The notes under the pieces were generated by a model. It was not told where the DNA came from. It did no database searches and was given only the letters and a program-made list of their open reading frames with translations. Below are positions 4,193 through 54,374 of a stretch of DNA of 64,000 nt, one piece after another. How positions within the stretch are numbered: the stretch's first letter is position 1; each line of letters begins with the position of its first letter. Both the position numbers and the translations under genes were made by a program. The stretch is from Burkholderiales bacterium (GTDB lineage Bacteria > Pseudomonadota > Gammaproteobacteria > Burkholderiales > SG8-41): positions 10,464 to 74,463 of the forward strand of contig JAIENU010000074.1 in assembly GCA_019751125.1 (NCBI GenBank), read 5' to 3'.

Positions 4193-4206
4193 TTGCCGCC
4201 CGGGAA

Positions 4207-6890: not shown

Positions 6891-6905
6891 ATCAATAAAA
6901 ACAAT
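6891..6905 (-). repeat. AT-rich intergenic motif copy a (ATTGTTTTTATTGAT on the minus strand)
   Basis: Reads ATCAATAAAAACAAT on plus, immediately after the gabD TAA stop. One of five strong copies in the window. Confidence 0.7.
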
Positions 6906-6961
6906 GGCTTATAACGGACTCCGCCGCAGCATCCCTGCGGCGGTTCTGTTTGGAGCGGGGC

Positions 6962-7372: not shown

Positions 7373-7382
7373 GCTGTGCTGC

Positions 7383-8090: not shown

Positions 8091-8142
8091 CGAATGATGG
8101 TTATCAATCAATTAAACTAATCAATTAAATTCAATGGCTTAT

Positions 8143-8160
8143 CTTATCTGATCAGTTAAG
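8143..8160. promoter_or_regulatory. near-perfect 18-bp palindrome CTTATCTGATCAGTTAAG (candidate operator)
   Basis: 16 of 18 positions are self-complementary, with a perfect CTGATCAG core. It abuts the -35 box of the putative TauD promoter in the divergent GntR/TauD spacer. Confidence 0.4.
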
Positions 8161-8162
8161 GC

Positions 8163-8191
8163 TTGACAATAGATTATAAATTATTAATAAT
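8163..8191 (+). promoter_or_regulatory. putative sigma70-type promoter (TTGACA, 17 nt, AATAAT)
   Basis: Perfect -35 hexamer at 8163-8168, a 17-nt spacer, then AATAAT at 8186-8191, about 75 nt upstream of the TauD start. Confidence 0.4.
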
Positions 8192-8266
8192 TTGGTCAGC
8201 CTGCTGAGCCCTGTGGCATTACAAGGCCGGCAAGAAACCCTCCGCCATCCAAGCCCGGGAGACACC

Positions 8267-9172: not shown

Positions 9173-9194
9173 GTGGTATCCGCGGCAGCAAAAG

Positions 9195-9222
9195 AAAAAG
9201 CCCCGCAGCAGCGGGGCTTTTT
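9195..9222. terminator. bidirectional rho-independent terminator
   Basis: Hairpin AAAAAGCCCCGC-AGCA-GCGGGGCTTTTT between convergent genes. Confidence 0.8.
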
Positions 9223-9239
9223 AATTGCAGTAAAGAAAT

Positions 9240-10295
9240 TTACAGCGCGGCCACCAGATGTTGGGCGAAGGCCTGGGTGCCGAGTTTGCCGCCGAGGTCG
9301 GCGGTGCGCGTCGCCGGCGACTGCAGTGCGGCATCGATTGCGGCATCAATCGCCTTCGCCGCTTCGGCAAAGGCCGGCAGCTTGTGGCGCTGGGCCAGCC
9401 AGTCGAGCAGCATGGTTGATGACAGCAGCAGCGAGGTCGGGTTGGCCTTGTCCTGGTCCTGGATGTCGGGGGCTGAGCCGTGCTGGGCCTGCGCGCAGCA
9501 GGCGTTGTCGCCGGTCATCGTCGAGCCGGCGAGGCCGAGGCTGCCGGAAATCTCGGAGGCTTCGTCGGACAGGATGTCGCCGAACATGTTGCCGGTGACG
9601 ATGCAGTCAAACTGCGTCGGGTTGCGCACCAGCAACGCGGCCATTGCGTCGACGATTTTTTCATCGAGTTCGACGTCCGGATATTTTTTGGCGACGGCGC
9701 GCACTTCGCGCAGGAACAGGCCGTCGGACATGTGCAGCACATTGGCCTTGTGCACGGCGGTGACTTTCTTGCGGCGCTTGCGCGCCCACTCGAAGGCGAC
9801 TTCCGAAATGCGGCGGCACTGCTTCGCGGTGACCTTGCGGATGGCGATCGCCACATCCTCGGTCGGCATGAACTCGCCGCGGCCCATGAACATGTTGCGG
9901 TCGCCGTAAAACCCCTCGGTACATTCACGGAAGATCACCAGATCCACCGGCTTGCCGGTGAGGCCGACGCCCATGCGCGATTTTGCGGGGCGGATGTTGG
10001 CGAACAGGTCGAGCTGCACGCGCAGCCAGCCCGAAGGGTTGATGCCGCCTTTCTCCTTGTCCGGGTAATCGAGGTGCGACACCGGGCCGAGGATGATGCC
10101 TGGTGCCTGGCGCGCGGCTTCCTGCACCTCGACCGGCAGCGTGCTGCCCTGCGACTTCAGCGTCTTCAGGCCGATGTCGCGGATATCCCATTCCAGGCCG
10201 AGCTTGAATTTGGCGCTGGCGCGGTCGAGCACGGCCAGCGTGGCTCGGGTGATTTCGGGGCCGATGCCGTCACCGGGAAGGACGAGTAGCTTCAT
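9240..10295 (-). CDS. isocitrate/isopropylmalate dehydrogenase-family oxidoreductase (tartrate-dehydrogenase-like)
   Basis: N-terminus MKLLVLPGDGIGPEI, plus the NIRP, NMFGDILSDEAS and GSLGLAGS motifs of the beta-decarboxylating dehydrogenase family. Confidence 0.85.
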   Translation of the reverse strand: MKLLVLPGDGIGPEITRATLAVLDRASAKFKLGLEWDIRDIGLKTLKSQGSTLPVEVQEAARQAPGIILGPVSHLDYPDKEKGGINPSGWLRVQLDLFANIRPAKSRMGVGLTGKPVDLVIFRECTEGFYGDRNMFMGRGEFMPTEDVAIAIRKVTAKQCRRISEVAFEWARKRRKKVTAVHKANVLHMSDGLFLREVRAVAKKYPDVELDEKIVDAMAALLVRNPTQFDCIVTGNMFGDILSDEASEISGSLGLAGSTMTGDNACCAQAQHGSAPDIQDQDKANPTSLLLSSTMLLDWLAQRHKLPAFAEAAKAIDAAIDAALQSPATRTADLGGKLGTQAFAQHLVAAL

Positions 10296-10316
10296 TGCAA
10301 TTTCCTTATAAAAATG

Positions 10317-10330
10317 CCAATAAAAACAAT
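10317..10330 (-). repeat. AT-rich intergenic motif copy b (ATTGTTTTTATTGG on the minus strand)
   Basis: Lies between the GntR stop (10346) and the dehydrogenase start (10295), 22 nt upstream of that start. Confidence 0.6.
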
Positions 10331-10345
10331 CGGTTGTGATGAACT

Positions 10346-11281
10346 TCAGAGTTGTGCGGTGACCGTGCTGCGCGGCGTGGAGACGGCTTTGTCCTTGTCC
10401 ATGCCGGTCTTGCGTTCGCGCACCACGTCGAGGTGGCGGCGCAGGAATTCGGCTGCTTCCTGGCGGGAACCCTGTTCCAGCAACTCCAGCAGGTGCAGGT
10501 GTTCACGGCACTGGTCGGTGATGCGCTCGCGGTCGAACTTGGCGCGGTATTCGAGCAGGCGGCGCATGGCATTGACGCGGTGGATCGCATCGATCATGAA
10601 GCGGTTGTTGGAAAAACCGATGACCGTGTTGTGAAAGTCGGATCCCAATTCAAAGAGGCGGGCGCGTGACAGTCGCATCAGGCCGCCGTCCAGCAACATC
10701 TGCTGGTCCCGGCGCACGCGTTCAAGCTCACTCTTCACCAGGCGGAAGCCCGGTTCGAGCAGCGAGGCGGGTTCGAACAGCATGCGAAAGCGGTAACTCT
10801 GGGCATGTGCTTCCAGCGAGTCCGGCATCTGCACGAACATCCAGCCGTGGCCGGGCTTGCGCTCGATCCAGCCTTCCTTTTCCATCCGGTGCAACACACG
10901 CTGCAGTTCGCGCCGCGGCATGCCGTAACGGCGCATCAGCGCGGTTTCGGTGACATGTTCCTCGAGTTTGCCGGCGAGGCGGTCATCGGCAATCTGCAGA
11001 TACCGTTCCTCGGCAAGACCGGCGCCGTCAACCAGGGCGGGTCGCACACTGGCAGGCGGCAGTTTGCGCAGGAAATAACCGCGGTTCGGCTCCTGCACCA
11101 CCACGCCCATCTCCGCGAGCACGGCCAGCGCGCGGCGCACCGGTGTGCGTGACACCTTGAGTTCGTCAGCGAACTGCTGCTCGGCGAGGTGGGCGCCGAT
11201 CGCGATACCACTGCGGCGCAGATGGTCGGCCATGCGCAGCGCAAGCTGCTGGGCAAGTTCGGAAGCGTCGTTGCGGCTCAT
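10346..11281 (-). CDS. GntR-family regulator with two tandem wHTH modules plus an FCD-like domain
   Basis: First wHTH: LAEQQFADELKVSRTPVRRALAVLAEMGVVVQEPNRGYFL. Second wHTH: VTETALMRRYGMPRRELQRVLHRMEKEGWIERKPGHGWMF. A helical FCD-like C-terminus follows. Confidence 0.8.
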   Translation of the reverse strand: MSRNDASELAQQLALRMADHLRRSGIAIGAHLAEQQFADELKVSRTPVRRALAVLAEMGVVVQEPNRGYFLRKLPPASVRPALVDGAGLAEERYLQIADDRLAGKLEEHVTETALMRRYGMPRRELQRVLHRMEKEGWIERKPGHGWMFVQMPDSLEAHAQSYRFRMLFEPASLLEPGFRLVKSELERVRRDQQMLLDGGLMRLSRARLFELGSDFHNTVIGFSNNRFMIDAIHRVNAMRRLLEYRAKFDRERITDQCREHLHLLELLEQGSRQEAAEFLRRHLDVVRERKTGMDKDKAVSTPRSTVTAQL

Positions 11282-12386: not shown

Positions 12387-13355
12387 ATGGCAGGATTGCA
12401 GATCATGGCGGCAGCCACGGCCGCTGATTATGCGCGTGACCCGACGCGCTGGGGCAGCGCGGAAGTGGCCGCGCATTTCCCGTGCTTCGAACATGTGGAC
12501 GTGCGCACGTCCGGCGCGGTGATCCGCCTGCGCCACGGCGGTTCCGGACCGCCGCTGCTGCTGGTCCACGGCAATCCGCAGAACCATACCTGCTGGTACA
12601 AGATCGCGGCGCAGCTGGCGAAGCGTTACCACGTGATCCTGCCCGACCTGCGCGGCTACGGCGACAGCTCGCTGCCTGATGCGGGTGACAACCACATCAA
12701 CTTCAGCTTCCGCGCGATGGCGCAGGACCTGTTGGAGATCATGGACCAGCTCGGCTACGACAAATTCTTTGTCGCCGGACATGACCGTGGCGGGCGCACC
12801 GTGCACCGCCTGTGCATGGATCATCCGCAGCGCATCCGCAAGGTGTGCCTGATGGACATCATTCCCAACCACTATGTGTGGAACAACATCACCAAGGCCT
12901 GGGCGGTCGGCACCTGGCACTGGGCCTTCATGGCGCAGCCCGAGCCTTTCCCGGAGCGGCTGATCAGCGCGGTGCCGGCGGAATACTTCATCAAGAGCCG
13001 CATGGCGATCCGCGGCGGTACCGGCCTCGGTTTCCTGACTGATGGCGCGCTCGCCGAATACATCCGCTGCTATACGCTGAAGACGATCAGCGGTTCCTGC
13101 CGTGATTACCGCGCGACGGCCACCTGCGATTTCGAGATGGACACGGCCGACAAGGACAAGAAACTGGCGATGCCGCTGATGCTGCTGTGGGGCGCACGCG
13201 GCCATTCGCCGGAGCGCGCGCAGCGTTTTGTCGAAATCTGGAAGCAGTACGCGTCAAACATCCAGATTACCGATCCGCTGGAGGCCGGGCATTACATGCA
13301 GGAGGAAATGCCTGAGCGTATCCACGACCGTTTTGTCGAGTTTTTCCGGGATTGA
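12387..13355 (+). CDS. haloacetate (fluoroacetate) dehalogenase-like alpha/beta hydrolase, paralog 1
   Basis: LLLVHGNPQNHTCW, LPDLRGYGDS, Asp-nucleophile motif GHDRGGR, WHWAF, CRDYRA and GHYMQEE. RBS GGAGGAGAG lies before ATG 12387. Confidence 0.8.
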   Translation: MAGLQIMAAATAADYARDPTRWGSAEVAAHFPCFEHVDVRTSGAVIRLRHGGSGPPLLLVHGNPQNHTCWYKIAAQLAKRYHVILPDLRGYGDSSLPDAGDNHINFSFRAMAQDLLEIMDQLGYDKFFVAGHDRGGRTVHRLCMDHPQRIRKVCLMDIIPNHYVWNNITKAWAVGTWHWAFMAQPEPFPERLISAVPAEYFIKSRMAIRGGTGLGFLTDGALAEYIRCYTLKTISGSCRDYRATATCDFEMDTADKDKKLAMPLMLLWGARGHSPERAQRFVEIWKQYASNIQITDPLEAGHYMQEEMPERIHDRFVEFFRD

Positions 13356-13373
13356 GCGGGTCGCATCTTAAGT

Positions 13374-13389
13374 AATTGTTTTTATTGAT
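13374..13389 (+). repeat. AT-rich intergenic motif copy c (AATTGTTTTTATTGAT)
   Basis: 18 nt after the paralog-1 stop and 36 nt before the paralog-2 start. The extended match AGTAATTGTTTTTATTGA..ATATTTA is shared with copy e. Confidence 0.7.
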
Positions 13390-13424
13390 AAATATTTAAC
13401 ATCCCGGAGCGGAGGAGCAAACCC

Positions 13425-14309
13425 GTGTTCGAAGGTTTCAAGCTGACCCAGATCCAGACCAGCGACCCCGAGGTCAGGATCAACCTGCGTTACGGCGGCA
13501 ACGGCCCGCCGATCCTGCTGATCCACGGCAATCCGCTGACCCATGTGCACTGGCACCTGGTGGCGCCACGGCTGGCGAAGAACTTCACTGTGGTGGTCAC
13601 CGACCTGCGCGGCTATGGCGACAGCGGCAAGCCGCGCGGGCTTGAAGACCACAGCAACTATTCCTTCCGGCGCATGGCGCTCGATCAGGTCGAGGTGATG
13701 CAGGCGCTCGGCTTTGAAAAATTCTGCGTCGCCGGCCACGACCGTGGCGGGCGCGCGGCGATGCGCATGGCGCTGGATCATCCGGACAAGGTGAAAAAGC
13801 TCGCCACCTTTGACATCCTGCCCACGCACCATGTGCTGACCCACACGACCTGGCAGTGGGCACTCAATTCCTACCACTGGTTTTTCATGGCCCAGCCCTA
13901 CGACATTCCGGAAAAGCTGATGGAAGGCAAGGAGGACTACTACATCCTGAAGAAGCTGACCAAGATGGGCATCGGCAAGGGCGGTTTTTCAGAGGAGACG
14001 CTGAAGGAATACGCGCGCTGCTGCACGCCGGAGAACCTGCACGCGGTCTGCGAGGACTATCGCGCCGCAGTGACGGCGGATATGGCAATGGATACCGAGG
14101 ACTTCAATGCCGGGCGCAAGGTGCAATGCCCGGCGGCGATCTACTGGGGTGAGCTGAGCCACACCAACAAGTTCTTCGATCCGTTCAAGGCCTGGCCGCA
14201 GTACGTCGCGGACATCCGCCGCATCAAGCCCTTGCCCTGCGGCCACTACCCGGCGGAGCAGGTGCCGGATCAGGTGGTCGAGGAACTGGATTCGTTTTTC
14301 AGGGATTAG
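13425..14309 (+). CDS. haloacetate (fluoroacetate) dehalogenase-like alpha/beta hydrolase, paralog 2
   Basis: MFEGF N-terminus (the same as characterised fluoroacetate dehalogenases as I recall them), GHDRGGR, FDILP, YHWFF, CEDYRA and CGHYP. GTG start with GGAGGAG RBS 7 nt upstream. Confidence 0.85.
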   Translation: MFEGFKLTQIQTSDPEVRINLRYGGNGPPILLIHGNPLTHVHWHLVAPRLAKNFTVVVTDLRGYGDSGKPRGLEDHSNYSFRRMALDQVEVMQALGFEKFCVAGHDRGGRAAMRMALDHPDKVKKLATFDILPTHHVLTHTTWQWALNSYHWFFMAQPYDIPEKLMEGKEDYYILKKLTKMGIGKGGFSEETLKEYARCCTPENLHAVCEDYRAAVTADMAMDTEDFNAGRKVQCPAAIYWGELSHTNKFFDPFKAWPQYVADIRRIKPLPCGHYPAEQVPDQVVEELDSFFRD

Positions 14310-15157
14310 GCGGCAAGGTTCGTTACAAGCTTCCAGCCCAGCCAATCGCAAAGCCCGCGGCCCATCACCCATTCGAGGTCCTCGCCTTTGAGCCAGGGCA
14401 GCTCTTCGGTGTACAGGGTGACCGCCTGACGGTAGCTGCAGGCGAGTTTGGTCATGTCGGTACCCCAGAACATGCGGCGCGGGCCGAAGGCGTCGAAGGC
14501 CGCGCGCAGCGGTGCGTGCAGGCTGGGGAAGGGGTAGGCATCGGTGGCGAAGTGCGGGATGCCGCTGGCCTTCACTGCGACGTTCGGATATTTCGCCAGT
14601 GCCAGCAGCATAGGCAGGTCGGCAAAGGCCACATCGGCACCTTTGCTGCCCTTGGGCACGGCCATGTGGTCGATGATCAGCCGCAGCTGCGGATGGCGCT
14701 CGGCAATCGTCGCGATCTTCGGCGCGAGACGCTGGTTGATCAGCACCATCAGCGGCAGGCCGGCGCGTTCGGCTTCAGGCCAGATCCAGTCGGCGCTGCC
14801 ATCATGCAGCATGGGTTCGAACTGCGGCGTATGGAAGGTGAAGCGCAGTCCGAGCATGCCCGGCTGCTCCTTCCAGCGCGCGAACCGGCTGCGTGACTGC
14901 GGGTCGCGCGGATCGAGCCGGCCCATCACTGCAAAACGCTGCGGGTAAGCCTGTGCGGCGGCAAGCACCAGATCGTTGCGTTCACCCTCCCATGACGGCG
15001 GCACCAGCACCGCGCGATCAACACCGGCTTCGACCATCTCGCGCAACAGGTCTTCAGCGGTGAAGGATCCGGGGCGGTGCGGCGCATGCCGGGCCGGCCA
15101 CGGGCGTTCGGGCGTGCTCTCGGCCCAGATGTGGATTTGTGCGTCGACGAGTTTCAT
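14306..15157 (-). CDS. amidohydrolase-2 family metal-dependent hydrolase
   Basis: N-terminal metal-binding signature VDAQIHIW and a TIM-barrel-type sequence. Its stop codon overlaps the convergent dehalogenase stop. Confidence 0.8.
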   Translation of the reverse strand: MKLVDAQIHIWAESTPERPWPARHAPHRPGSFTAEDLLREMVEAGVDRAVLVPPSWEGERNDLVLAAAQAYPQRFAVMGRLDPRDPQSRSRFARWKEQPGMLGLRFTFHTPQFEPMLHDGSADWIWPEAERAGLPLMVLINQRLAPKIATIAERHPQLRLIIDHMAVPKGSKGADVAFADLPMLLALAKYPNVAVKASGIPHFATDAYPFPSLHAPLRAAFDAFGPRRMFWGTDMTKLACSYRQAVTLYTEELPWLKGEDLEWVMGRGLCDWLGWKLVTNLAA

Positions 15158-15287
15158 GAGTGGTGATCCCGAGTGTTGCGATTGCCCACAACTTTAGCCG
15201 AGAACGGCAGGGCCGCGGTGCCGAAGTCTGCATTGAGGGCTGTGCTATCTTTTCCGGGACTTCTTAATTCTTTGATCGCCATCCGTC

Positions 15288-16079
15288 ATGCCCCACATCG
15301 TCGCCCTATACCGTTATCCGCTCAAGGGTTTCACGCCCGAACCCGTGCAAAGCCTGACCATCCTGCCCGACGGCCGCGCCTCGGGCGACCGTGTGCTCAA
15401 TCTGCGTTTTGCCGATGCGCCGGCGGCCGACGATGCCTGGTGCCGCAAGTATGCGGGCGTGGTGCTCGCCAACACGCCGGGGCTGGCGCGGCTGAAAACC
15501 ACCTATGACCACGAGACGCAGCAACTGAAAATCATGCACGGTGAGCGCGTGCTGGTCGATGAACGGCTGGAAGGCGCCGGCCGCCAGCGCATCGTTGACG
15601 CCCTGACCGCCTATGTGGATGACCTTGAAGAGAATCCCCTGCGCGGCCGCCCCGAACGCCTGCCGCTGAAGCTGGTCGGTGACGGCATCACGCCGCGCTA
15701 CCAGGATAACGACGCCGGGCAGGTCACGCTGCACAGCCGCGAGACCATCACCTCGGCGGCGCAGGCGCTGGGCGATCCGGATCTGAATGACCACCGCTTC
15801 CGTCACAACATCGTGATCGAAGGTGTCACGGCCTGGGAGGAGCTGTCGTGGCTGGGCAAACGGCTGCGCATCGGCGCGGTGGAGATGGATGTGGTCAAGC
15901 CGAAGACACGCTGCCTCGCCACCCACGCCAATCCGGCGACCGGTGAGCGCGACCTGATGGTGATGCAGGGGCTGGTCAAGCATTTCAGGCAGGAGCAGCC
16001 GACGCTGGGCATCGGCATGCTGACGCATGGCGCCGGCGGCGTGGTGCGCATCGGTGATGAAATCAGCGTGATCTCCTGA
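15288..16079 (+). CDS. MOSC domain-containing protein
   Basis: N-terminus MPHIVALYRYPLKGFTPE (MOSC_N beta-barrel type) and a C-terminal MOSC block with a conserved Cys (KPKTRCLATHANP). Confidence 0.8.
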   Translation: MPHIVALYRYPLKGFTPEPVQSLTILPDGRASGDRVLNLRFADAPAADDAWCRKYAGVVLANTPGLARLKTTYDHETQQLKIMHGERVLVDERLEGAGRQRIVDALTAYVDDLEENPLRGRPERLPLKLVGDGITPRYQDNDAGQVTLHSRETITSAAQALGDPDLNDHRFRHNIVIEGVTAWEELSWLGKRLRIGAVEMDVVKPKTRCLATHANPATGERDLMVMQGLVKHFRQEQPTLGIGMLTHGAGGVVRIGDEISVIS

Positions 16080-16126
16080 ACAAACGGCTTGCGGCATCGC
16101 GCCGCTGAAACTAGAATCCGATTACT

Positions 16127-16310
16127 CGCAGGAGAGTGAACCCTTGGTCATATCGGGGTTCCGCCGAAGGCGCAATCCCTCATGATCGCTCAGGCAAACA
16201 TACTGCGGGTGGTAACAGCCGATCTGGAGAGCGGTCACGCGATTCTGCGGTGACCCACCGAAGGGGCACACGGGCCCAGGCCCGTAAAACTCTCAGGTAA
16301 ACGGACAGGG
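16127..16310 (+). promoter_or_regulatory. tandem glycine riboswitch (two aptamers)
   Basis: Aptamer 1: CGCAGGAGAG...CGCCGAAGGCGCAA...CUCAGGCAAA...CUGCG. Aptamer 2: CUGGAGAG...CACCGAAGGGGCA...CUCUCAGGUAAACGGACAG. Both carry the invariant GGAGAG, CCGAAGG.GCA and CUCAGG cores of the glycine riboswitch in the canonical tandem arrangement. Confidence 0.9.
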
Positions 16311-16394
16311 AGGGCGGCGCGGAGTGAAAGCTCCGTCTGCTCATTCACTGTTCGAGTCCCTTGAATGCAAAACTTCGGGGTCTGAGAGGTCATC

Positions 16395-17660
16395 ATGCGA
16401 GTCATCGTACTCGGTGCCGGCGTTGTCGGTACCGCGGCGGCGTGGTTTCTTAGCCGCGCCGGCCATGAAGTCAGCGTCATCGATCGACAACCCGCCGCAG
16501 GCATGGAAACCAGCTACGCCAACGGCGGGCAGATTTCCGTCAGCCATGCCGAGCCCTGGGCCAATCCTTCAGCGCCGTTCAAGGTATTGAAGTGGTTGTT
16601 CCGCGAGGACGCGCCGCTGCTGTTCCGGCCGCGTCTCGACTGGGCGCAGTTGCGCTGGTGCCTGGGCTTCCTGCGCGAATGTACGCCGGCGCGCACGCGC
16701 CACAACATCATCCAGATCGTCAACCTTGGTCTGTACAGCCGCGCCACCCTGCGGGCGCTGCGTGCGGAGACCGGCATTGCCTATGACCACCTTGCGCGCG
16801 GCATCCTGCATTTCTACACCAGCCGGCAGGAGTTCGATGCCGCGCAGGAGCCGGCGCGTCTGATGCGTGAGTTCGGCTGCGAGCTCGACATGAAAACGCC
16901 GGAGGAGTGCGTCGCGATCGAGCCGGCGCTCGCCAGCGCGCGTGATCTGCTGGTCGGCGGCAGCATGACGCCTTCGGACGAATCGGGCGACGCGCACCAG
17001 TTCACACAGCGCCTTGCCGCGCTGTGCGCCGGGCGCGGCGTGCGTTATCACTACGACACCACGATCCTCGCGCTGGACGCCGCAGGCAGGCGCATCGAGG
17101 GCGTGCGTGTGCGCGACCGCGAAGGCTCGCGCCTGCTCAAGGCAGACGCCTATGTGCTGGCGCTGGGCAGTTACAGCGCGGGTCTTGCCGCGCGGCTGGG
17201 TCTGCGCCTGAACATTTATCCGGCCAAGGGTTATTCCGTGACCATGCCGGTGAGCGATCCGGCGCGCGCGTACCAGGTCAGCCTGACCGACGATGAATAC
17301 AAGCTGGTGTTTTCCCGGCTCGGCGACCGGCTGCGCATCGCCGGCACCTGCGAGCTGAACGGCTACGACACCCGGCTCAACGACGTGCGCTGCCGGGCTA
17401 TTGTCAAACGCACCGGTGAATTGTTTCCGGGCGGTGGCGACACCACTAAAGCCGAGTTCTGGACCGGTCTGCGGCCGGCGACGCCATCGAACCTGCCCTA
17501 CATCGGCGCTACGCGATATCCGAATCTGTTTCTGAACACCGGCCACGGTACGCTGGGGTGGACACACGCCTGCGGCTCGGGACAGGCCATCGCCGACATC
17601 GTGTCGGGGCGACGGCCGGAGGTGGATTTTGCGTTTTGTGCGGCGGCATGGCGGCAATAG
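16395..17660 (+). CDS. dadA: D-amino-acid dehydrogenase-like FAD oxidoreductase (DadA family)
   Basis: Collinear with E. coli DadA as I recall it: MRVIVLGAGVVGTAAAWFL, ETSYANGGQIS, YPAKGYS, FWTGLRPATP and NTGHGTLGWTHACGSG. Confidence 0.85.
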   Translation: MRVIVLGAGVVGTAAAWFLSRAGHEVSVIDRQPAAGMETSYANGGQISVSHAEPWANPSAPFKVLKWLFREDAPLLFRPRLDWAQLRWCLGFLRECTPARTRHNIIQIVNLGLYSRATLRALRAETGIAYDHLARGILHFYTSRQEFDAAQEPARLMREFGCELDMKTPEECVAIEPALASARDLLVGGSMTPSDESGDAHQFTQRLAALCAGRGVRYHYDTTILALDAAGRRIEGVRVRDREGSRLLKADAYVLALGSYSAGLAARLGLRLNIYPAKGYSVTMPVSDPARAYQVSLTDDEYKLVFSRLGDRLRIAGTCELNGYDTRLNDVRCRAIVKRTGELFPGGGDTTKAEFWTGLRPATPSNLPYIGATRYPNLFLNTGHGTLGWTHACGSGQAIADIVSGRRPEVDFAFCAAAWRQ

Positions 17661-17701
17661 GGGCGGGAGCCGGCAGGTCGGGGCTGCCGCAGTTGCGGTA
17701 A

Positions 17702-17722
17702 ATTGTATACACTGCATACAAT
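17702..17722. promoter_or_regulatory. inverted repeat ATTGTATACACTGCATACAAT (candidate GntR-type operator)
   Basis: ATTGTAT/ATACAAT arms lie about 75 nt upstream of the TauD-GntR-Bug-enolase gene string. Half-sites match the TTGTAT/ATACAA type known for GntR-family operators. Confidence 0.45.
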
Positions 17723-17796
17723 AAGCTTCTCGCGGCAAACATGCCGCACCGGCCGCCGGCGGCGATCCGGCTGATCCCACAAAACGGAAGACAAAC

Positions 17797-18744
17797 ATGG
17801 AAACAGCGCAACGCCAGTCACAACATCCGGTCAACCAGCCCGGCCAGGTGCAGGTGATCCCCAGCGGTGCCGCACTCGGTGCGGAAATCCGTGGCGTCGA
17901 TCTGTCGCAGCCGGTGCCTGAAGAGACCAAGGCACTGTTGCGCAAGGCCTGGGCGGATCATCTGGTGATTTACTGGCGGGGACAGAACCTGCCGGACGAG
18001 GCCCTGCTTGGTGCCGCGAAGATTTTCGGCGAAACCAAGGAACCGGCGGCGCGCAAGTACCAGGTGGCCGGCGGCTACAACATCGGCGGCAAGATCGTGC
18101 CGCTGCATCCCCACCTGACGCTGATCAGCAACCTCGACGAGAACGGAACGCCGGTCAAGGACAACGGCGCACTGGGCAGCTATGAGGTGGTGTGGCACAG
18201 CGACAATTCCTATGTGCAGGTGCCGCCAGCGGGCAGCATGCTCTACTCGGTGGTGCTGCCGGTGAATGGCGGGGGCGATACCTGGTTCAATAACCAGTAT
18301 CAGGCTTACGAGGAACTGCCGGATGACCTGAAGGCGGCGATCAAGGGCAAGTCGCAGATTCATGATGCGAGCCGCAACAGCGCAGGCGTGTTGCGACCGA
18401 CGGTCAAGATGCCGACGAAGCCCGAAGAGGTACCGGGTCCTGCACATCCACTCGTTCGTGTTCATCCGGTCACCGGCAAGCGCGCGCTGTACCTCGGCCG
18501 CCGTCGCGACTGGCCTTCGAACTACATCATCGGCATGTCCAACGAGGACAGCGAGGCCCTGCTCGACAAGCTGTGGGCACATGCCACACAGGTCAAATAT
18601 GCGTGGAAACACAGCTGGCAGGTCGGCGATCTGGTGCTGTGGGACAACCGCTGCGCGATGCATTACCGCTCCGAGGTCGATCCGAAGCAGCCGCGCGTCC
18701 TGCATCGCACCGTGATCAACGGCGAAGCCGTGATCGCGGGCTGA
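17797..18744 (+). CDS. TauD/TfdA-family Fe(II)/2-oxoglutarate-dependent dioxygenase, second copy
   Basis: VIPSGAALGAEIRGVDLSQPV, the WHSDNSY His-x-Asp motif and LWDNRCAMHYR. Confidence 0.85.
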   Translation: METAQRQSQHPVNQPGQVQVIPSGAALGAEIRGVDLSQPVPEETKALLRKAWADHLVIYWRGQNLPDEALLGAAKIFGETKEPAARKYQVAGGYNIGGKIVPLHPHLTLISNLDENGTPVKDNGALGSYEVVWHSDNSYVQVPPAGSMLYSVVLPVNGGGDTWFNNQYQAYEELPDDLKAAIKGKSQIHDASRNSAGVLRPTVKMPTKPEEVPGPAHPLVRVHPVTGKRALYLGRRRDWPSNYIIGMSNEDSEALLDKLWAHATQVKYAWKHSWQVGDLVLWDNRCAMHYRSEVDPKQPRVLHRTVINGEAVIAG

Positions 18745-18751
18745 GCGGTCG

Positions 18752-19531
18752 ATGGCGCCACGCAGCCGTTCAAAACGGCCGGCTCGCAGCAGCAGCCCCG
18801 ATGACTCCGCCCTGCAGCGTATTGCCGCACGCAGCGTTCCTGCGGGTGGCAATGCACGTTCGCTGGCTGAAGTCGCCTGCGACGAAATCCGCAGGGCGAT
18901 CAGGGAGGGCAGGGTTGCCACCGGAGCACACCTGACCGAGGTTGATCTGGCCGCGTGGCTGGGCATGAGCCGTACGCCGATACGAGAGGCGATGCGGCGG
19001 CTGCAAAGCGAGGGGCTGCTGCTCAACCAGCCGTTCCGCGGTGCGCTGGTGATGCGCCTTGATGCCGATGACATGCGGCAGATGTTCGCCGTGCGTGAAC
19101 TGCTGGAGCCGGCTGCTGCTGCAGCCTGTGCCGTTAACGCGGGTCCGGCCGACATTGCGGCGTTGAGGGCAATCCTCGACGAGGAAGCCGTGAAACTGGA
19201 TAATCCCGCAGCGCTGATTCCGCTGAACCGTCAGTTTCACGACATCATTCTCGAAAGCGCGCGCAACCAGTTCCTGAGCAAGGCCATTGCGGGCGTCTAT
19301 TCGCTGATTCCACTGCTGGGCGATTCGAATCTGCTGAACGGGCGTCACGCCCGGGAGGCCCATGCCCAGCATCAGGAAATCGTTGACGCTATCGAGCACC
19401 GCGATGCCGCGCGTGCAGAAGTTCTGGCGCGTGAACATGTGCGGGCTTCATTGCGGACCCGATTGGCCCGCATCGCGGACAATGTGCCGCAGGATTTCAT
19501 AAAAAAAACCACCAAAACGAGGAAGAAATAA
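18752..19531 (+). CDS. GntR-family transcriptional regulator with FCD domain
   Basis: wHTH LTEVDLAAWLGMSRTPIREAMRRLQSEGLLLNQPFRGALV and an FCD-like helical C-terminus with His residues. Confidence 0.85.
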   Translation: MAPRSRSKRPARSSSPDDSALQRIAARSVPAGGNARSLAEVACDEIRRAIREGRVATGAHLTEVDLAAWLGMSRTPIREAMRRLQSEGLLLNQPFRGALVMRLDADDMRQMFAVRELLEPAAAAACAVNAGPADIAALRAILDEEAVKLDNPAALIPLNRQFHDIILESARNQFLSKAIAGVYSLIPLLGDSNLLNGRHAREAHAQHQEIVDAIEHRDAARAEVLAREHVRASLRTRLARIADNVPQDFIKKTTKTRKK

Positions 19532-20503
19532 ATGCATCAATACTTCAGCGCGATCCTGCTGTGCGGCCTCAGCTGCCTGCCGATGACGGTGGCGGCGCAG
19601 GCGCCCGGCGGATATCCCTCGAAACCGGTGCGCATGCTGGTGCCGTTCGTGGCTGGCGGCGGCACCGATGTTGTCGCCCGTGCTGTCGCACAGAAACTGG
19701 CTGACCGCACCGCGCAGCAGTTCGTTGTTGACAACCGTCCCGGCGCCGGCGGGCGCATCGCCCTGGAAACCACCAAGATGGCTGCACCCGACGGCTACAC
19801 CATCACCATGATTTCCGGAACGACCACGGCCAGCAGCAACCTGCACAAGAACCTGCCTTACGATTTTGCGAAGGATTTTGCGCCGATCACCCAGGTCACC
19901 GAGCAGCCCTATGTGGTGCTGGTGCACGCTGCCTTGCCGGTCAAATCCATTCCGGAACTGGTCGCACTGGCCAAGGCCAAGCCGGGCGCGCTCAACTATG
20001 GTTCCTCTGGCACCGGTGGCATGCAGCATCTGTCCGGAACGCTGCTGTCGCAGAAGGCCGGCATTTCGATGGTGCATATTCCGTTCAAGGGCGGCGGGCA
20101 GGTGGTTGTTGATCTGGTTGCAGGGCAGATCCAGCTGGCCTTCCTGAATCCGCTGGGCGCGCGTCCCCATATCACTGCCGGACGTGTGCGCGGCATTGCG
20201 GTGACCACGCGCAAACGGGCGCAGGCTTTCCCCAATCTGCCTGCCGTGGCGGAAACACTGCCCGGTTTCCATGTCAGCAACTGGTATGGCCTGGTGGCGC
20301 CGGCAAAAACCCCGCAGCCGGTCATCCAGTTCCTCTACAAGAACGTGGTGGCGGCCCTGGCCGACGCCGAGCTGCGCGAGCGACTGGAAAAGGAAGGCTC
20401 CGAGCTGCTCGGCAGCACCCCCAGGGAGTTCGGCACCCACATCGTCAATGAGGTGCAGATGTGGGGCAGGGTCATCCGCGAGGCCGGCATCCAGGCCAAT
20501 TGA
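19532..20503 (+). CDS. Bug/TctC-family periplasmic solute receptor
   Basis: Signal peptide, then YPSKPVRMLVPFVAGGGTD and the YGSSGTG, IPFKGG and NWYG blocks. The start abuts the GntR stop. Confidence 0.9.
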   Translation: MHQYFSAILLCGLSCLPMTVAAQAPGGYPSKPVRMLVPFVAGGGTDVVARAVAQKLADRTAQQFVVDNRPGAGGRIALETTKMAAPDGYTITMISGTTTASSNLHKNLPYDFAKDFAPITQVTEQPYVVLVHAALPVKSIPELVALAKAKPGALNYGSSGTGGMQHLSGTLLSQKAGISMVHIPFKGGGQVVVDLVAGQIQLAFLNPLGARPHITAGRVRGIAVTTRKRAQAFPNLPAVAETLPGFHVSNWYGLVAPAKTPQPVIQFLYKNVVAALADAELRERLEKEGSELLGSTPREFGTHIVNEVQMWGRVIREAGIQAN

Positions 20504-20541
20504 TCCGTCTTTATCAGTATCCGATCACAGAAGAGGTTCCA

Positions 20542-21660
20542 ATGACTGCAAAGATCAGCAAGGTTGAAGTATTCAGCATCGGCATGCCCCTGGTGGGAAC
20601 CTTCACCAGCGGCGGTGTTTCCAAAAGCGTCACCAAGTGCGTGGTGGTGCGGGTCACCGACAAGGACGGCGCGACGGGCATCAGCAGCATCGACCCCGCA
20701 TCCACGGCCAAGTCGCCGCATACCGGACCGGAGCTGGCAATGGCCATCCGCGACCGAATTGCGCCGGTGCTGATCGGGCAGGATCCGGGCAACATCAACC
20801 ACATTCTCGAGATGGCCTCCAAACTGACACCGACGCAGCCCGGTGCGGTTGTCGGCGTGGAACTGGCCTGCATCGAACTGGTCTGCCGGCGCAGGGGCAT
20901 AGCGCTGCATGATTTTGTCGGAGGTGCCGTCCTTGACCGTGTGCAGTTCAACGGCTGGGTCGGTGAACTGCCGCCTGACGAGGCGGTGACCGAGGCGCTG
21001 CGCTGGAAAAATGCCGGATTCCGATCGATGAAGATCAAGGTCGGCAACGATGTGGCCAAGGACAGCGCCCGGGTGATCGCGGTGCGCGAGGCCGTCGGCA
21101 AGGATATCCAGCTGCGCATGGATGCCAACATGCAGTGCACCGTGGAGCAGGCGTTGGCACTGTGCAAGGCGGTCAAGTCCTGCGACATGCAGCTGTTTGA
21201 GCAACCGGTGCAAAAGGATGACCTTCAGGGGCTGGCACGGATCCGCCGCGAAGGCGGCATTCCGATCATGGCCGACGAATCGATCAGCGACCACCAGAGC
21301 CTGATCCGGGTGATCAAGGCCGACTGCGCTGATTACGTCAAGTTCGGCATCAAGCAGGCCGGCGGCCTGCTGCAGGCCTCGCGCATGCTCGCCACCGCGG
21401 AGGCCGCAGGACTGCCGGTGGTGCTCGGGCATGGATTCGGGCTCGATCTCAGCACGATGGCGGAGATCATGCTCGGCGCCACTTCCCGCAACGTTGTGCC
21501 GGGGCTGGAATGCGTGGGTCCGCTGAAAGTGGTCGACACCGTGGCAAAAACCCGGCTCGACATCAGCAGTGGCAGCGTGGCGCTGCCGTCCGGGCCCGGA
21601 CTGGGGATCGAACTGGACGAGGAGAAGCTGAAGCGTTACGGCCTGCCGATGGATCACTGA
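20542..21660 (+). CDS. enolase-superfamily enzyme (mandelate racemase/muconate lactonizing enzyme family)
   Basis: KIKVG, metal ligands in RMDAN, FEQP and MADES, and a C-terminal barrel. Start trimmed to ATG 20542. Confidence 0.85.
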   Translation: MTAKISKVEVFSIGMPLVGTFTSGGVSKSVTKCVVVRVTDKDGATGISSIDPASTAKSPHTGPELAMAIRDRIAPVLIGQDPGNINHILEMASKLTPTQPGAVVGVELACIELVCRRRGIALHDFVGGAVLDRVQFNGWVGELPPDEAVTEALRWKNAGFRSMKIKVGNDVAKDSARVIAVREAVGKDIQLRMDANMQCTVEQALALCKAVKSCDMQLFEQPVQKDDLQGLARIRREGGIPIMADESISDHQSLIRVIKADCADYVKFGIKQAGGLLQASRMLATAEAAGLPVVLGHGFGLDLSTMAEIMLGATSRNVVPGLECVGPLKVVDTVAKTRLDISSGSVALPSGPGLGIELDEEKLKRYGLPMDH

Positions 21661-21670
21661 TCGGCATCCG

Positions 21671-21708
21671 CAGCAAAAACGGCGCACCCTGGTGCGCCGT
21701 TTTTGCTG
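21671..21708. terminator. bidirectional rho-independent terminator
   Basis: Perfect 17-bp stem CAGCAAAAACGGCGCAC / GTGCGCCGTTTTTGCTG with a 4-nt loop, between convergent genes. Confidence 0.85.
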
Positions 21709-21721
21709 GAGCAGCGACGAT

Positions 21722-22648
21722 TTACGACAGGCCGTACAGCAGCTTGCCGGCCACCGGCATTTTTGCGGTGAGGATGTCGCCCGACAGCGATTCAGTGATG
21801 TAGATGGTCTTGCGATCCGGGCCGCCGAAGGCGAGGTTGGCCAGGTGGTGGTGCTTGTGGTCGGTGGAATGCACCAGGTGCGTGGGCAGCATGTTCGAGT
21901 CGAAGCGCCAGATGCCGACGCCGAGCTGGCACACCAGCAGGCCGTTCTCCGAATCCATCTCGATGCCGTCCGGGCCGCCGACGCCGCCCGAGAGCTGGAT
22001 TGCCACGCCTGTCTTCGACACCGAGCCGTCGGCCATCACCGGCAGACGCCACACCGAGTTCGAGCGGGTGACGCCGACATAGACATGTTTTTCCACGGTG
22101 GTTATGGTGATGCCGTTGGGGCTGGGCGCATTGTTGACCAGCTTGCGCAGGTCGCCGTTGGCCTTCAGGCGGAACACCGCGCCGGTCGGGTCGGCGATGC
22201 CGGTCTGGCCCTGGTCGGTGAAGTAAAGGTCGCCATCCTTGGTGAAGTGCAGGTCATTGAGGCCCTTGAAGCTTTCGCTGTAGGCGGTACGCAGCACGTT
22301 TTCCAGTTTGCCGGTTTTCGGATCGAGGGTCAGCAGGCCTTCCTTGTAATCGCAGATGAACAGGCGGCCGTCCTTGTGGAATTTCATGCCGTTGGGCCAG
22401 CCGTCGTACTGGGTCACCAGGTCCCAGTTACCTTTGGGGTCGATGCGGAAAATGCGGCCGAAGGGGATGTCGCAAATCCACAGGTTGCCTTCGCGGTCGA
22501 AGGACGGGCCTTCGAGAAAGCACTCCACTTCCGCGTTCTGCCGGTTCGGATCGGACCAGGCGCTGCGGCTTTTCTTGCGGAACTTGGCGGGCAGCGAGGT
22601 GAAGACTTCGGTGGTGATGTGCTCGAGCGGCTTGAACGGGTTGTACAT
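21722..22648 (-). CDS. SMP-30/gluconolactonase/LRE-family lactonase
   Basis: Six-bladed propeller-type repeats (EGPSFDREGNLWICD, WPNGMKFHKDGRLFICD, LNDLHFTKDGDLYFTD, PNGITI, GPDGIEMD). Start trimmed to 22648. Confidence 0.85.
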   Translation of the reverse strand: MYNPFKPLEHITTEVFTSLPAKFRKKSRSAWSDPNRQNAEVECFLEGPSFDREGNLWICDIPFGRIFRIDPKGNWDLVTQYDGWPNGMKFHKDGRLFICDYKEGLLTLDPKTGKLENVLRTAYSESFKGLNDLHFTKDGDLYFTDQGQTGIADPTGAVFRLKANGDLRKLVNNAPSPNGITITTVEKHVYVGVTRSNSVWRLPVMADGSVSKTGVAIQLSGGVGGPDGIEMDSENGLLVCQLGVGIWRFDSNMLPTHLVHSTDHKHHHLANLAFGGPDRKTIYITESLSGDILTAKMPVAGKLLYGLS

Positions 22649-22850
22649 GGCGCGGCATTCCTCAAACTTAAGCTGTTGAATGAAGGGTTTTTTCTGCGCC
22701 GGCAACAACCGAAAGAAAAGCAACGGCGCCCGAAGAGCCGCGATGTTAGCACCAGCTTGCGCGTTTTTGCATACGGTGCACCCCTGTGACCGTGGAGTGG
22801 GTTAGCATCGGCGCTCCCGGCTCAAGGTGAAAGTTCAAGGAGGCAGCACA

Positions 22851-23750
22851 GTGGAAGTGTTCGAAGGTTTCAAGGATTTCAAGCTGACCCAGATCCAGAC
22901 CAGCGACCCCGAGGTCAAGATCAACCTGCGTTACGGCGGCAACGGCCCGCCAATCCTGCTGATCCACGGCAATCCGCTGACCCATGTGCACTGGCACCTG
23001 GTGGCGCCGCGGCTGGCGAAAAACTACACCGTGGTGGTCACCGACCTTCGCGGCTACGGCGACAGCAGCAAGCCGCGCGGCAGGGAGGACCACAGCAACT
23101 ACACCTTCCGCCGCATGGGCCAGGACCAGATCGACGTGATGGCCGCACTCGGCTTCGACAAGTTCTGCGTGGCCGGCCACGACCGCGGCGCGCGCACCGC
23201 CTTCCGCATGGCGCTGGATCACCCCGAGAAAATCCTCAAGTTCGCCAGCTTCGACATCCTGCCGACCCACCACCTGCTGACCCACGCCACCTACCAGTGG
23301 GCGATGCATTCCTCGCACTGGTTTTTCATGGCCCAGGCCTATGACATTCCGGAGAAGCTGATCGAGGGCAAGTACGACTATTACATCAAGCAGAAGCTGA
23401 CCAAGCTCGGCATCGGCAAGGGCGGCTTCACCGAGGCGACGCTGCGCGAATACGCGCGGGTCTGCACTGCCGAGAACATCCATGCCGTGTGCGAGGATTA
23501 CCGCGCCGCGGTGACGCTGGACATGGAAATGGACACCGCTGACTTCAAGGCCGGCCGCAAGATCCAGTGCCCGACCGCGGTGTACTGGGGCGAGCAGAGC
23601 CACACCGAGAAACATTTCGACCCGCTGAAGGCGTGGCCGCAGTACGCCGCCGACATCCGCCGCATCAAGCCGTTGCCCTGCGGCCATTACCCGGCGGAGC
23701 AGGTGCCGGATATGGTGTTCGAGGAGATCAACGCGTTTTTCAGCTACTGA
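22851..23750 (+). CDS. haloacetate (fluoroacetate) dehalogenase-like alpha/beta hydrolase, paralog 3
   Basis: Close paralog of 13425..14309, with GHDRGAR, FDILP, SHWFF, CEDYRA and CGHYP. AAGGAGG RBS lies 7 nt before GTG 22851. GTG 22857 is the position homologous to the paralog-2 start. Confidence 0.85.
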   Translation: MEVFEGFKDFKLTQIQTSDPEVKINLRYGGNGPPILLIHGNPLTHVHWHLVAPRLAKNYTVVVTDLRGYGDSSKPRGREDHSNYTFRRMGQDQIDVMAALGFDKFCVAGHDRGARTAFRMALDHPEKILKFASFDILPTHHLLTHATYQWAMHSSHWFFMAQAYDIPEKLIEGKYDYYIKQKLTKLGIGKGGFTEATLREYARVCTAENIHAVCEDYRAAVTLDMEMDTADFKAGRKIQCPTAVYWGEQSHTEKHFDPLKAWPQYAADIRRIKPLPCGHYPAEQVPDMVFEEINAFFSY

Positions 23751-50857: not shown

Positions 50858-50942
50858 GGGCTTTCCTCCGTTTTTACGTTGTTGTAATGACTTGCCGCCA
50901 TTGCTGAGACTGCGGTCACGCGCTGCAGTTCCTGGCCCGGGT

Positions 50943-51983: not shown

Positions 51984-52013
51984 TGGGACCTCCAGGGAGC
52001 CTGCGATTTTAAT

Positions 52014-54355: not shown

Positions 54356-54374
54356 AACCGGAGTCCTGAATACC

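Follow-up and report, generated by a model that had tools for sequence, protein, structure and literature searches.

We analysed a 64-kb stretch of DNA from a Burkholderiales bacterium (contig JAIENU010000074.1; the window hereafter means this whole stretch) and studied three hydrolase genes within it, designated P1, P2 and P3. Their products are members of the fluoroacetate dehalogenase (FAcD) branch of the α/β hydrolases. By homology, P1–P3 possess the complete machinery for SN2 displacement at the α-carbon of a carboxylate, and this is the best-supported statement about them. FAcDs are among the very few enzymes that hydrolyse C–F bonds and have been mined and engineered for organofluorine clean-up. 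The family and the chemistry predicted for P1–P3 are known ones; what is new is an altered pocket and different conserved gene partners. We give about an even chance to the proposal that P1–P3 are Asp-nucleophile hydrolases of one uncharacterised FAcD subclade, with a more polar α-substituted acid as the likely natural substrate.

Genes, family and catalytic residues

The original prediction, made from the sequence alone, had described three FAcD-like open reading frames (ORFs). All three were found at their predicted positions on the + strand:

12387-13355, + strand: P1, 322 aa, ATG start; FAcD-family α/β hydrolase, 'P1-type'
13425-14309, + strand: P2, 294 aa, GTG start; FAcD-family hydrolase, 'P2/P3-type'
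22851-23750, + strand: P3, 299 aa, GTG start; FAcD-family hydrolase, 'P2/P3-type'

A gap of 69 bp separates P1 from P2, which follows it on the same strand, and the longer ORF that encloses P3 opens at 22827. P1 and P2 are 42% identical, and P2 and P3 80–81% (81% by BLASTP). A tblastn search of the whole window with each of P1–P3 revealed no fourth copy. Start codons are preceded by the Shine-Dalgarno sequences GGAGGAG (P1), GGAGGA (P2) and AAGGAGG (P3). The ratio of non-synonymous to synonymous substitution rates (dN/dS) against orthologues was 0.06–0.10 overall (P1, 0.065; P2, 0.056; P3, 0.09–0.10), which indicates purifying selection on every copy. Because each start has a Shine-Dalgarno sequence and dN/dS lies in this range, we conclude that P1–P3 are three functional hydrolase genes. 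The GC content at third codon positions (GC3), 0.82–0.90, is in line with host coding sequence. Between P2 and P3, dN/dS was 0.25, above the orthologue comparisons.

Promoter and terminator scans around both loci gave counts not above those of shuffled sequence. The P1–P2 intergenic region contains, at 13365-13405, an AT-rich stretch of ~35 bases (taagtaattgtttttattgataaatatttaacatc) directly 5′ of the ribosome-binding site of P2; the rest of the genome is 63% GC. This stretch could be a promoter or a junction left by insertion of P2.

Each motif quoted in the original prediction (GHDRG, DI(L/I)P, the His-Trp pair, C(R/E)DYRA, GHY and, in the second and third paralogs, FEGF) was located in the sequence. 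The nucleophile/Arg motif reads GHDRGGR in P1 and P2 and GHDRGAR in P3; the acid-Asp motif reads MDIIP in P1 and FDILP in P2 and P3. The His-Trp motif is WHWAF, YHWFF and SHWFF in P1, P2 and P3, respectively, and the Tyr motif is CRDYRA in P1 and CEDYRA in the other two. GHY occurs in all three proteins, and the N-terminal FEGF in P2 and P3.

Five solved FAcDs (RPA1163, FA1, NOS0089, DeHa4 and DAR3835) were aligned with P1–P3 using MAFFT, and RPA1163 numbering is used throughout. The PDB sequences were rebuilt from HMMER alignments; the FA1 sequence used was a 100% match to 1Y37. The eight mechanistic positions (D110, R111, R114, D134, H155, W156, Y219 and H280) fell in the same columns and were conserved in P1, P2 and P3, including the halide pocket of His155, Trp156 and Tyr219. 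The earlier equation of the nucleophile, the carboxylate-binding arginines and the His/Trp/Tyr triad with positions of FA1 and RPA1163 was thus borne out. The check proposed for it, an alignment to characterised FAcDs, could have found the halide-pocket residues non-equivalent; the present alignment placed all eight at equivalent positions. The His that precedes the nucleophile is likewise present in P1–P3, and is conserved in 96% of defluorinases (bioRxiv 10.64898/2026.09.12.751135). The residues predicted from this alignment are:

P1: nucleophile D133 (codon 12783-12785), R134, R137, acid D157, H178/W179, Y241, base H302
P2: nucleophile D106 (codon 13740-13742), R107, R110, acid D130, H151/W152, Y212, base H274
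P3: nucleophile D111 (codon 23181-23183), R112, R115, acid D135, H156/W157, Y217, base H279

In the proposed reaction, the two arginines (R134/R137 in P1, R107/R110 in P2, R112/R115 in P3) would hold the carboxylate of a small acid while the adjoining Asp (D133, D106 or D111) attacks the α-carbon in an SN2 displacement. The leaving group would be stabilised by the His-Trp pair (H178-W179, H151-W152 or H156-W157) together with the Tyr (Y241, Y212 or Y217). The aspartyl ester would then be hydrolysed by water that the His-Asp pair (H302-D157, H274-D130 or H279-D135) activates, to give a 2-hydroxy acid.

The catalytic positions are strongly retained. Among 87 clade sequences aligned with RPA1163 and NOS0089, seven of the eight were invariant (89/89) and D134 was present in 88/89, with one Glu. 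Across 130 subclade sequences the Asp110/His280/Asp134 triad was invariant and Arg111 and Arg114 were kept in every case (130/130). A family-wide search of 1.84 billion cluster representatives yielded 651 clusters at E ≤ 1e-30, and all eight residues were kept by 59 of 101 full-length 50%-cluster representatives. The eight-residue signature is common in the family and hence not discriminating. Given the pocket substitutions that P1–P3 share, described below, its retention does not therefore show that fluoroacetate is the substrate.

Searches of Pfam matched P1–P3 to generic α/β-hydrolase domains only, and no NCBIfam model scored above its cut-off for any of the three. The NCBIfam haloalkane dehalogenase models NF002938, NF002873 and NF002043 gave 30–70 bits against cut-offs of 241–466. 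By phmmer against the PDB, P1–P3 matched FAcD-family chains over their full length with E values of 1e-59 to 1e-86; canonical epoxide hydrolases scored far weaker (1e-13 to 1e-28). The solved FAcDs matched were 3QYJ (Alr0039, that is NOS0089), 9C9F (DeHa4 of Delftia D4B), RPA1163, FA1 and DAR3835. Against 3qyj, E was 8.6e-76 for P1, 5.7e-86 for P2 (48% identity) and 1.2e-81 for P3; P1 also matched 3r3u (E 5.2e-71). Identity between P1–P3 and the solved FAcDs is 36–48%, the same range as characterised FAcDs show among themselves: RPA1163 and NOS0089 are 48% identical, and FA1 and RPA1163 42% (PMC11022551).

Predicted structures were consistent with this placement. For P1, AlphaFold2 with a 130-sequence alignment gave a model with a predicted local distance difference test score (pLDDT) of 87.4 and a predicted template-modelling (TM) score of 0.89. 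Among PDB chains, the 50 that Foldseek ranked highest against this model were all FAcDs (TM 0.83–0.89 by target length; root-mean-square deviation (rmsd) 2.5–3.2 Å); on RPA1163 and NOS0089 it superimposed with TM 0.86–0.89 and rmsd 2.5–2.9 Å. The P2 model, from a 33-sequence alignment, lends weak support only (pLDDT 73, below 50 in the cap; TM 0.75; rmsd 6.5 Å); its top 50 PDB matches were all FAcD-family chains, including one PA2086 chain. P1–P3, having an α/β core and a helical cap and matching solved FAcDs over their whole length, are members of the FAcD branch.

P1-type proteins carry an N-terminal extension of ~28 aa (12387-12470 in P1) that is conserved in orthologues and has no counterpart in P2, P3 or the solved FAcDs. 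AlphaFold predicts it to be ordered (pLDDT 85–90), with a short strand and three short helices. Some P1-type homologues are 350–374 aa long.

An altered pocket and recurrent gene partners

Outside the eight mechanistic positions, the pocket of P1–P3 departs from that of the solved FAcDs:

Position 40: Asn (of HGNP) in P1–P3; Phe, Phe, Tyr, His and Tyr in the five solved FAcDs
Position 253: His in P1–P3; Ile, Leu, Ile, Val and Phe in the five solved FAcDs
Position 185 (gate): in P1 Arg or Gly according to the alignment used, in P2 Met, in P3 Leu; Trp in four solved FAcDs, Arg in DeHa4
Position 281: Tyr in P1–P3; Phe in four of the five solved FAcDs

The corresponding subclade markers are N63 (HGNP), H273 and Y303 in P1, N36, H246 and Y275 in P2, and N41, H251 and Y280 in P3. 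P1–P3 thus lack the Trp185 gate and the compact hydrophobic/aromatic lining that every assayed FAcD has. In complexes of RPA1163, F40 and I253 contact the α-carbon substituent of bulky 2-fluoro acids (PMC13328661), and F40 and W185 are part of the composition of its active site (PMC13403318).

In a neighbour-joining tree, P1–P3 group on a branch of their own, apart from the five solved FAcDs. Asn40 was found in all 130 subclade sequences. His253 occurred in 45/45 P2-type and 59/85 P1-type sequences; 24 of the 85 P1-type sequences (~28%) have Gln instead, and in nine (~10%) Tyr219 is replaced by Phe. Part of the P1-type clade, represented by the Phe219 and Gln253 variants, may have drifted from halide chemistry. 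The pair of Asn40 and His253 was rare in the wider family, being present in only 2 of the 59 cluster representatives that keep all eight residues. No solved structure falls in the subclade; Salmonella 4NVR has Trp155 and His40. The predicted polar pocket is the mark of a discrete, uncharacterised branch of the FAcD family.

To identify gene partners, we clustered all genes within 4 kb of the hydrolase across 87 loci. The families that recurred over deep branches were MmgE/PrpD (15 loci), PdxA-family dehydrogenases (14) and the isocitrate/isopropylmalate-dehydrogenase (Iso_dh) family (15), and at least one of them lay within 4 kb in 31 of the 87. An Iso_dh-family gene directly adjoins the hydrolase in L035, L037 and L038. 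In L070–L080, in which the hydrolase is ~60% identical to P2, genes for an ABC permease, a PdxA-like protein, an MmgE/PrpD protein and the hydrolase follow each other on one strand with overlaps or very short gaps. The arrangement in L080, all on one strand, is:

5768-7465: ABC permease
7462-8526: PdxA-like
8545-9978: MmgE/PrpD
10001-10864: hydrolase

The gap between the MmgE/PrpD gene and the hydrolase was 6–177 bp across L071–L080, and the same partner families also flank the hydrolase in L030–L050. On plasmids of Phyllobacterium zundukense (strain A18/3m, gene N8E88_RS01230) and Neorhizobium sp. NCHU2750 (NCHU2750_42780) there is an orthologue with 54–57% identity in which HGNP and His253 are both kept; its annotation is 'alpha/beta hydrolase' on one plasmid and 'dehH haloacetate dehalogenase' on the other. 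Its neighbours there include tartrate dehydrogenase genes, an Iso_dh-family gene, PdxA, two MmgE/PrpD genes, TctA/B and an AfuB-like ABC permease. Partner proteins are 55–72% identical across these lineages.

Members of the three partner families also occur in the window:

9240..10295, − strand: Iso_dh (isocitrate/isopropylmalate-dehydrogenase-family) gene (Pfam Iso_dh 1.8e-89; below all NCBIfam equivalog cut-offs)
50943-51983, − strand: PdxA-family dehydrogenase gene (Pfam PdxA 3.6e-84)
52014-53447, − strand: MmgE/PrpD-family gene (Pfam MmgE_PrpD_N/C)

The latter two stand in a run on the − strand (49883-54541) comprising a Bug receptor, the PdxA-family gene, the MmgE/PrpD-family gene and a 365-aa ORF with no Pfam match. 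Orthologues of the partner genes in other lineages, they are 56–64% identical to genes of the Phyllobacterium plasmid, and 59% and 67% identical to those of the L080 operon. The window Iso_dh gene shares 45% identity with the family member that lies immediately beside the hydrolase on the Phyllobacterium plasmid. It is possible that these three window genes are functional partners of the hydrolases.

Candidate substrates

Release of fluoride from fluoroacetate has been shown for NOS0089, DAR3835, DeHa4, RPA1163 and FA1 (PMC11022551, PMC11223199). All assayed members of the family that have this set of residues act on haloacetates, and for this reason P1–P3 would likely turn over haloacetates, including fluoroacetate, in vitro. 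The sequence data nevertheless suggest that a more polar α-substituted acid is likelier than fluoroacetate as the physiological substrate. We favour such a substrate, at least for the P2/P3-type proteins, because the pocket is polar and has lost the gate Trp. It is further favoured because enzymes for 2-hydroxy polycarboxylates and carboxylate transporters are conserved beside hydrolase genes of this type, and because fluoride and glycolate functions are not nearby. Neither the window nor seven diverse related loci contained a fluoride riboswitch, glycine riboswitches only being found. A glcDEF glycolate oxidase was absent downstream of P3: the ORFs at 33–37 kb are not glcDEF, and the region examined holds TcuB, γ-glutamyltransferases and amino-acid oxidases. 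The substrate could be a di- or tricarboxylate bearing a halogen or an epoxide, with a 2-hydroxy product that would feed the partner dehydrogenases or dehydratases; an epoxy- or halo-dicarboxylate is the most definite candidate.

A narrower version, which we consider unlikely, is that the Asn40/His253 subclade (the P2/P3-type and possibly the P1-type) consists of α-substituted di-/tricarboxylate hydrolases that are not fluoroacetate dehalogenases in vivo. Such an enzyme would open trans- or cis-epoxysuccinate to tartrate or take the halide off a 2-halo-dicarboxylate. Asn40 and His253 would bind the second carboxylate, and the product would pass to the PdxA-like, Iso_dh/tartrate-dehydrogenase-like and MmgE/PrpD-like partners. 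Nothing useful emerged from literature searches on trans-epoxysuccinate hydrolase or on haloacetate dehalogenase in connection with tartrate dehydrogenase.

Several observations weigh against a polar natural substrate. No assayed enzyme of the subclade was identified. The family members assayed with the eight residues are all FAcDs, such that the plain haloacetate dehalogenase interpretation stays strong. The Asn of HGNP is a halide-binding residue in haloalkane dehalogenases. By analogy, Asn40 might do no more than contribute a further halide contact, an equally simple alternative to binding a second carboxylate. The window's own PdxA and PrpD genes are separated from P3 by 27 kb. The partner association holds for P2/P3-type genes in four lineages and fails in many other loci, among them SAR116, in which the context of the hydrolase differs. 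For P1-type genes, no recurrent partner was found in distant genomes: their neighbours are unrelated, being a glutathione S-transferase and a rhodanese in L083 and a cyclase and an aldehyde dehydrogenase in L085. In L083 (7309-9086), the P1-type hydrolase begins 45 bp after the glutathione S-transferase gene on the same strand, with the rhodanese gene earlier, a detoxification-like context.

A serious competitor is that all three proteins are genuine haloacetate/fluoroacetate dehalogenases that detoxify or use haloacetates, yielding glycolate, with the extra copies providing dosage or substrate range. We regard this as quite conceivable, if on balance doubtful. The conserved eight residues and preceding His, an identity to assayed FAcDs as high as that among assayed FAcDs themselves, the label 'haloacetate dehalogenase' or dehH given to homologues by JGI and GenBank, the halide-ligand role of the HGNP Asn in haloalkane dehalogenases, and stand-alone, variable contexts typical of detoxification enzymes, such as that in L083, all speak for it. 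However, residues 40, 253 and 185 are unlike those of all five solved FAcDs, and a conserved site is no guarantee of rate: the active site of DeHa4 is fully conserved, yet its kcat on fluoroacetate is 0.77 per hour at pH 7, and the enzyme is described as monomeric and slow (PMC11223199). The absence of a fluoride riboswitch from the window and the seven related loci and of a glcDEF-type oxidase downstream also tells against it, as does a conserved PdxA-like and MmgE/PrpD-like operon with no obvious role in glycolate or haloacetate metabolism. Finally, 70–90% identity over thousands of freshwater and soil metagenome sequences is hard to square with rare fluoroacetate, an objection that is weaker for chloro- or bromoacetate. 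The original prediction of a triplicated haloacetate and possibly C–F bond-cleaving capacity is thus upheld as to family and the eight residues. As a whole it is only partly supported: given the changed pocket at 40, 253 and 185 and the slowness of DeHa4, those residues do not establish fluoroacetate as the substrate, nor does the gene context, lacking a fluoride riboswitch and a nearby glycolate oxidase, bespeak such a capacity.

Two further alternatives fare worse. It is highly improbable that P1–P3 act on neutral substrates without a carboxylate, as epoxide hydrolases or haloalkane dehalogenases, with a likeness to FAcDs that is only superfamily-wide. Epoxide hydrolases do have an HGXP motif and an Asp nucleophile in common with P1–P3, haloalkane dehalogenase models are the top NCBIfam match of P1 and among the top three of P2 and P3, and the homologue PA2086 was deposited as a 'probable epoxide hydrolase'. 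The haloalkane dehalogenase scores nevertheless fall far below their cut-offs, the nucleophile is followed by Arg and not by the Trp of haloalkane dehalogenases, and both arginines are kept throughout the subclade. The PDB epoxide hydrolases score far weaker than the FAcD-family chains, and P1–P3 have a single cap-domain Tyr, in contrast to the two of canonical epoxide hydrolases. We likewise give very little credence to the idea that one or more copies is a redundant duplicate, decaying or non-catalytic. The raised dN/dS between P2 and P3, the long P3 branch at codon positions 1+2 and the loss, in the closest relative (L001), of the gene in the P3 slot would fit decay. Set against these are three full-length ORFs with Shine-Dalgarno sequences and all catalytic residues intact, the dN/dS values against orthologues, and GC3 values that fit host coding sequence.

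Copies, surroundings and known systems

Metagenomes hold both types in great abundance: thousands of sequences were scored, and the best 120 of each type (P1 and P2/P3) were 68–95% identical; most were unnamed or labelled 'haloacetate dehalogenase' by JGI. Among species-representative genomes (one per species), 511 loci encode a P2 relative, of which the best 80 were examined. Nearly all of these 80 were from metagenome-assembled genomes (MAGs) of uncultured Betaproteobacteria/Burkholderiales, plus SAR116. The closest P2 relative among them, in L001, is 96% identical and has the same P1-P2-Amidohydro_2 order; the P1 orthologue there is 94% identical over residues 1–322. A P1-type gene lay within 10 kb in five of the 80 loci.

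In the close lineage, the common gene order is Iso_dh(−) ... lactonase(−) / hydrolase(+) / MFS(+) / Bug(−) / TcuA(+), and a single P2/P3-type gene occupies the slot held here by P3. P3 is the positional orthologue of this single gene, which most related genomes have between the lactonase and MFS genes; the SGL(−)/hydrolase(+)/MFS(+) synteny was present in ~20 loci. In L001, nothing lies between the lactonase and MFS genes, and the P3 slot is empty. Trees built from protein, from third codon positions and from positions 1+2 placed P3 in the clade L016–L028, and P2 with L001 in the clade L002–L015; P3 had a long branch at positions 1+2 and a longer amino-acid branch. A recent tandem duplication of P2/P3 was rejected: DNA similarity (83.7%) ends at the coding edges and the trees split the two between clades. 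For these same reasons, the third copy appears to have come from a sister lineage: by phylogeny, P2 is a gene from the sister lineage of P3, placed beside P1. P1 represents a distinct subtype, found in variable contexts of its own. The term 'triplicated' is therefore apt for the number of copies and not for their origin, P1 being divergent (42% identical to P2) and P2 and P3 stemming from two orthologous lineages. None of the 80 loci examined has three copies within 11 kb, and in this respect the window stands alone beside them; two copies per replicon occur elsewhere, however, and the eight residues are common.

The hydrolases lie among mixed catabolic genes, including those for two TauD-family dioxygenases, GntR/FCD regulators, three Bug receptors, an MR/MLE enzyme, MOSC, TcuA and TcuB. 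Genes that directly flank P3 are:

21722..22723, − strand: SMP-30/gluconolactonase-type gene (Pfam SGL 9.5e-36), divergent from P3
23955..25184, + strand: MFS transporter gene, MdtG-like below cut-off (Pfam MFS_1; NCBIfam MdtG 132 bits vs cut-off 571)

The SGL gene adjoins the hydrolase in 29 of the 87 loci; hydrolase identity is 76% or higher in each of these. The likely start of the MFS protein, read from the ORF translation, is MSSHISDD..., which leaves a gap of ~200 bp after P3; the MFS gene was found in 20 of the 87 loci, in the close lineage only. Pfam confirmed the amidohydrolase, lactonase, MFS transporter and Bug receptor named in the original prediction (Amidohydro_2, SMP-30/gluconolactonase-type, MFS and Bug/TctC), although they are not conserved partners outside the close lineage. 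A functional tie of the hydrolases to Amidohydro_2, MOSC, the lactonase and MFS was rejected: conserved in the close lineage only, they may represent mere shared synteny.

Other features of the window were also recorded. TcuA and TcuB lie at 26425-28957 (+), immediately beyond the Bug gene found after P3 and MFS; TcuA (tricarballylate dehydrogenase) scored 731 bits against a cut-off of 369 and is syntenic in related MAGs. A glycine riboswitch aptamer (RF00504; 58 bits) at 16119-16215 (+) lies upstream of a DadA-like D-amino-acid dehydrogenase gene (16395-17660). The related locus L006 has a tandem aptamer pair there (4066-4266), and in the window one aptamer is above threshold. Two γ-glutamyltransferase-like paralogues, below the equivalog cut-off, at 29177-30895 (+) and 38475-40187 (+), bracket a group of FAD-dependent amino-acid/sarcosine-oxidase-like genes. 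A further α/β-hydrolase gene at 55393-56541 (+) encodes 382 aa (Abhydrolase_1/6); it was unmatched by tblastn with P1–P3 at 1e-5 and so shows no detectable relation to the FAcD family. Patches of low GC content (0.48–0.55 vs 0.62–0.65) coincide with a DUF4041/T5orf172 gene at 41551-42837 (−) and a HEPN AbiU2 abortive-infection gene at 56552-57307 (+). They are probably small, horizontally acquired defence islets.

What follows from these results depends on the activity of the branch. The eight-residue test does not discriminate, as it is passed by most of the family and by an abundant polar-pocket branch whose partners point to polycarboxylates. Should the branch defluorinate, P1–P3 would offer three naturally diverged polar-pocket scaffolds, possibly suited to polar or dicarboxylic fluoro-acids. 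Should it not, it would mark a limit of residue-based defluorinase prediction and may reveal a new step in organic-acid catabolism. If the di-/tricarboxylate proposal is correct, the genes would form part of a catabolic module for organic acids that had gone unrecognised, spread widely among Burkholderiales of fresh water and soil and among rhizobial plasmids. Orthologues are available in cultured hosts, Phyllobacterium zundukense and Neorhizobium sp. NCHU2750.

Among known systems, haloalkane dehalogenases of subfamily II (LinB, DhaA) have the α/β fold, the Asp nucleophile and HGNP in common with P1–P3, and the HGNP Asn side chain is one of their two halide-stabilising residues. Unlike P1–P3, they have a Trp after the nucleophile and no carboxylate-binding arginines; P1–P3 read D-R-G-G/A-R at this point and do not bear the marks of haloalkane dehalogenases (EC 3.8.1.5). 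Of the features of epoxide hydrolases, P1–P3 have HGNP and the Asp nucleophile, with one cap Tyr (the Y219 equivalent) beside the His/Trp pair, and an epoxy-carboxylate is a possible substrate. A mechanistic analogy exists in the cis-epoxysuccinate hydrolase CESH[L], a homologue of L-2-haloacid dehalogenase that converts the epoxide to tartrate by a two-step ester mechanism with an Asp nucleophile (PMC6429283). The likeness goes no further, as the HAD superfamily fold is unrelated and there is no sequence similarity to P1–P3.

The family of P1–P3 also contains PA2086 of Pseudomonas aeruginosa (4B9A/4B9E, 'probable epoxide hydrolase') and, from Salmonella, 4NVR ('putative acyltransferase'), with E 1e-59 to 1e-70; it thus probably includes members that are not fluoroacetate dehalogenases. 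4NVR differs from P1–P3 in its Trp in place of His155 and its His at 40. PA2086, judging from its PDB titles, was crystallised as T131D and Q244E mutants and presumably lacks the acid Asp; P1–P3 keep both His155 and this Asp. Cluster representatives with Thr at position 134 do exist.

The nearest known relatives are the FAcDs of the α/β-hydrolase fold (EC 3.8.1.3): RPA1163 of R. palustris (3R3U), FAc-DEX FA1 of Burkholderia sp. (1Y37), H-1 of Delftia acidovorans B, NOS0089/Alr0039 of Nostoc (3QYJ), DAR3835 of Dechloromonas (8SDC) and DeHa4 of Delftia D4B (9C9F). RPA1163 and FA1 are homodimers for which half-of-sites behaviour has been described. P1–P3 resemble these enzymes in fold, length, Asp-His-Asp triad, preceding His, Arg111/Arg114 and His155/Trp156/Tyr219. 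The expected reaction, attack by Asp on the α-carbon of the carboxylate in an SN2 step followed by ester hydrolysis, is also the same, and FA1 has the N-terminal FEGF of P2 and P3. Unlike the solved FAcDs, P1–P3 have Asn40 and His253; they also have Tyr281 and no Trp185, against Phe and Trp in four of the five, and the P2/P3-type genes have PdxA-like, MmgE/PrpD-like and Iso_dh partners.

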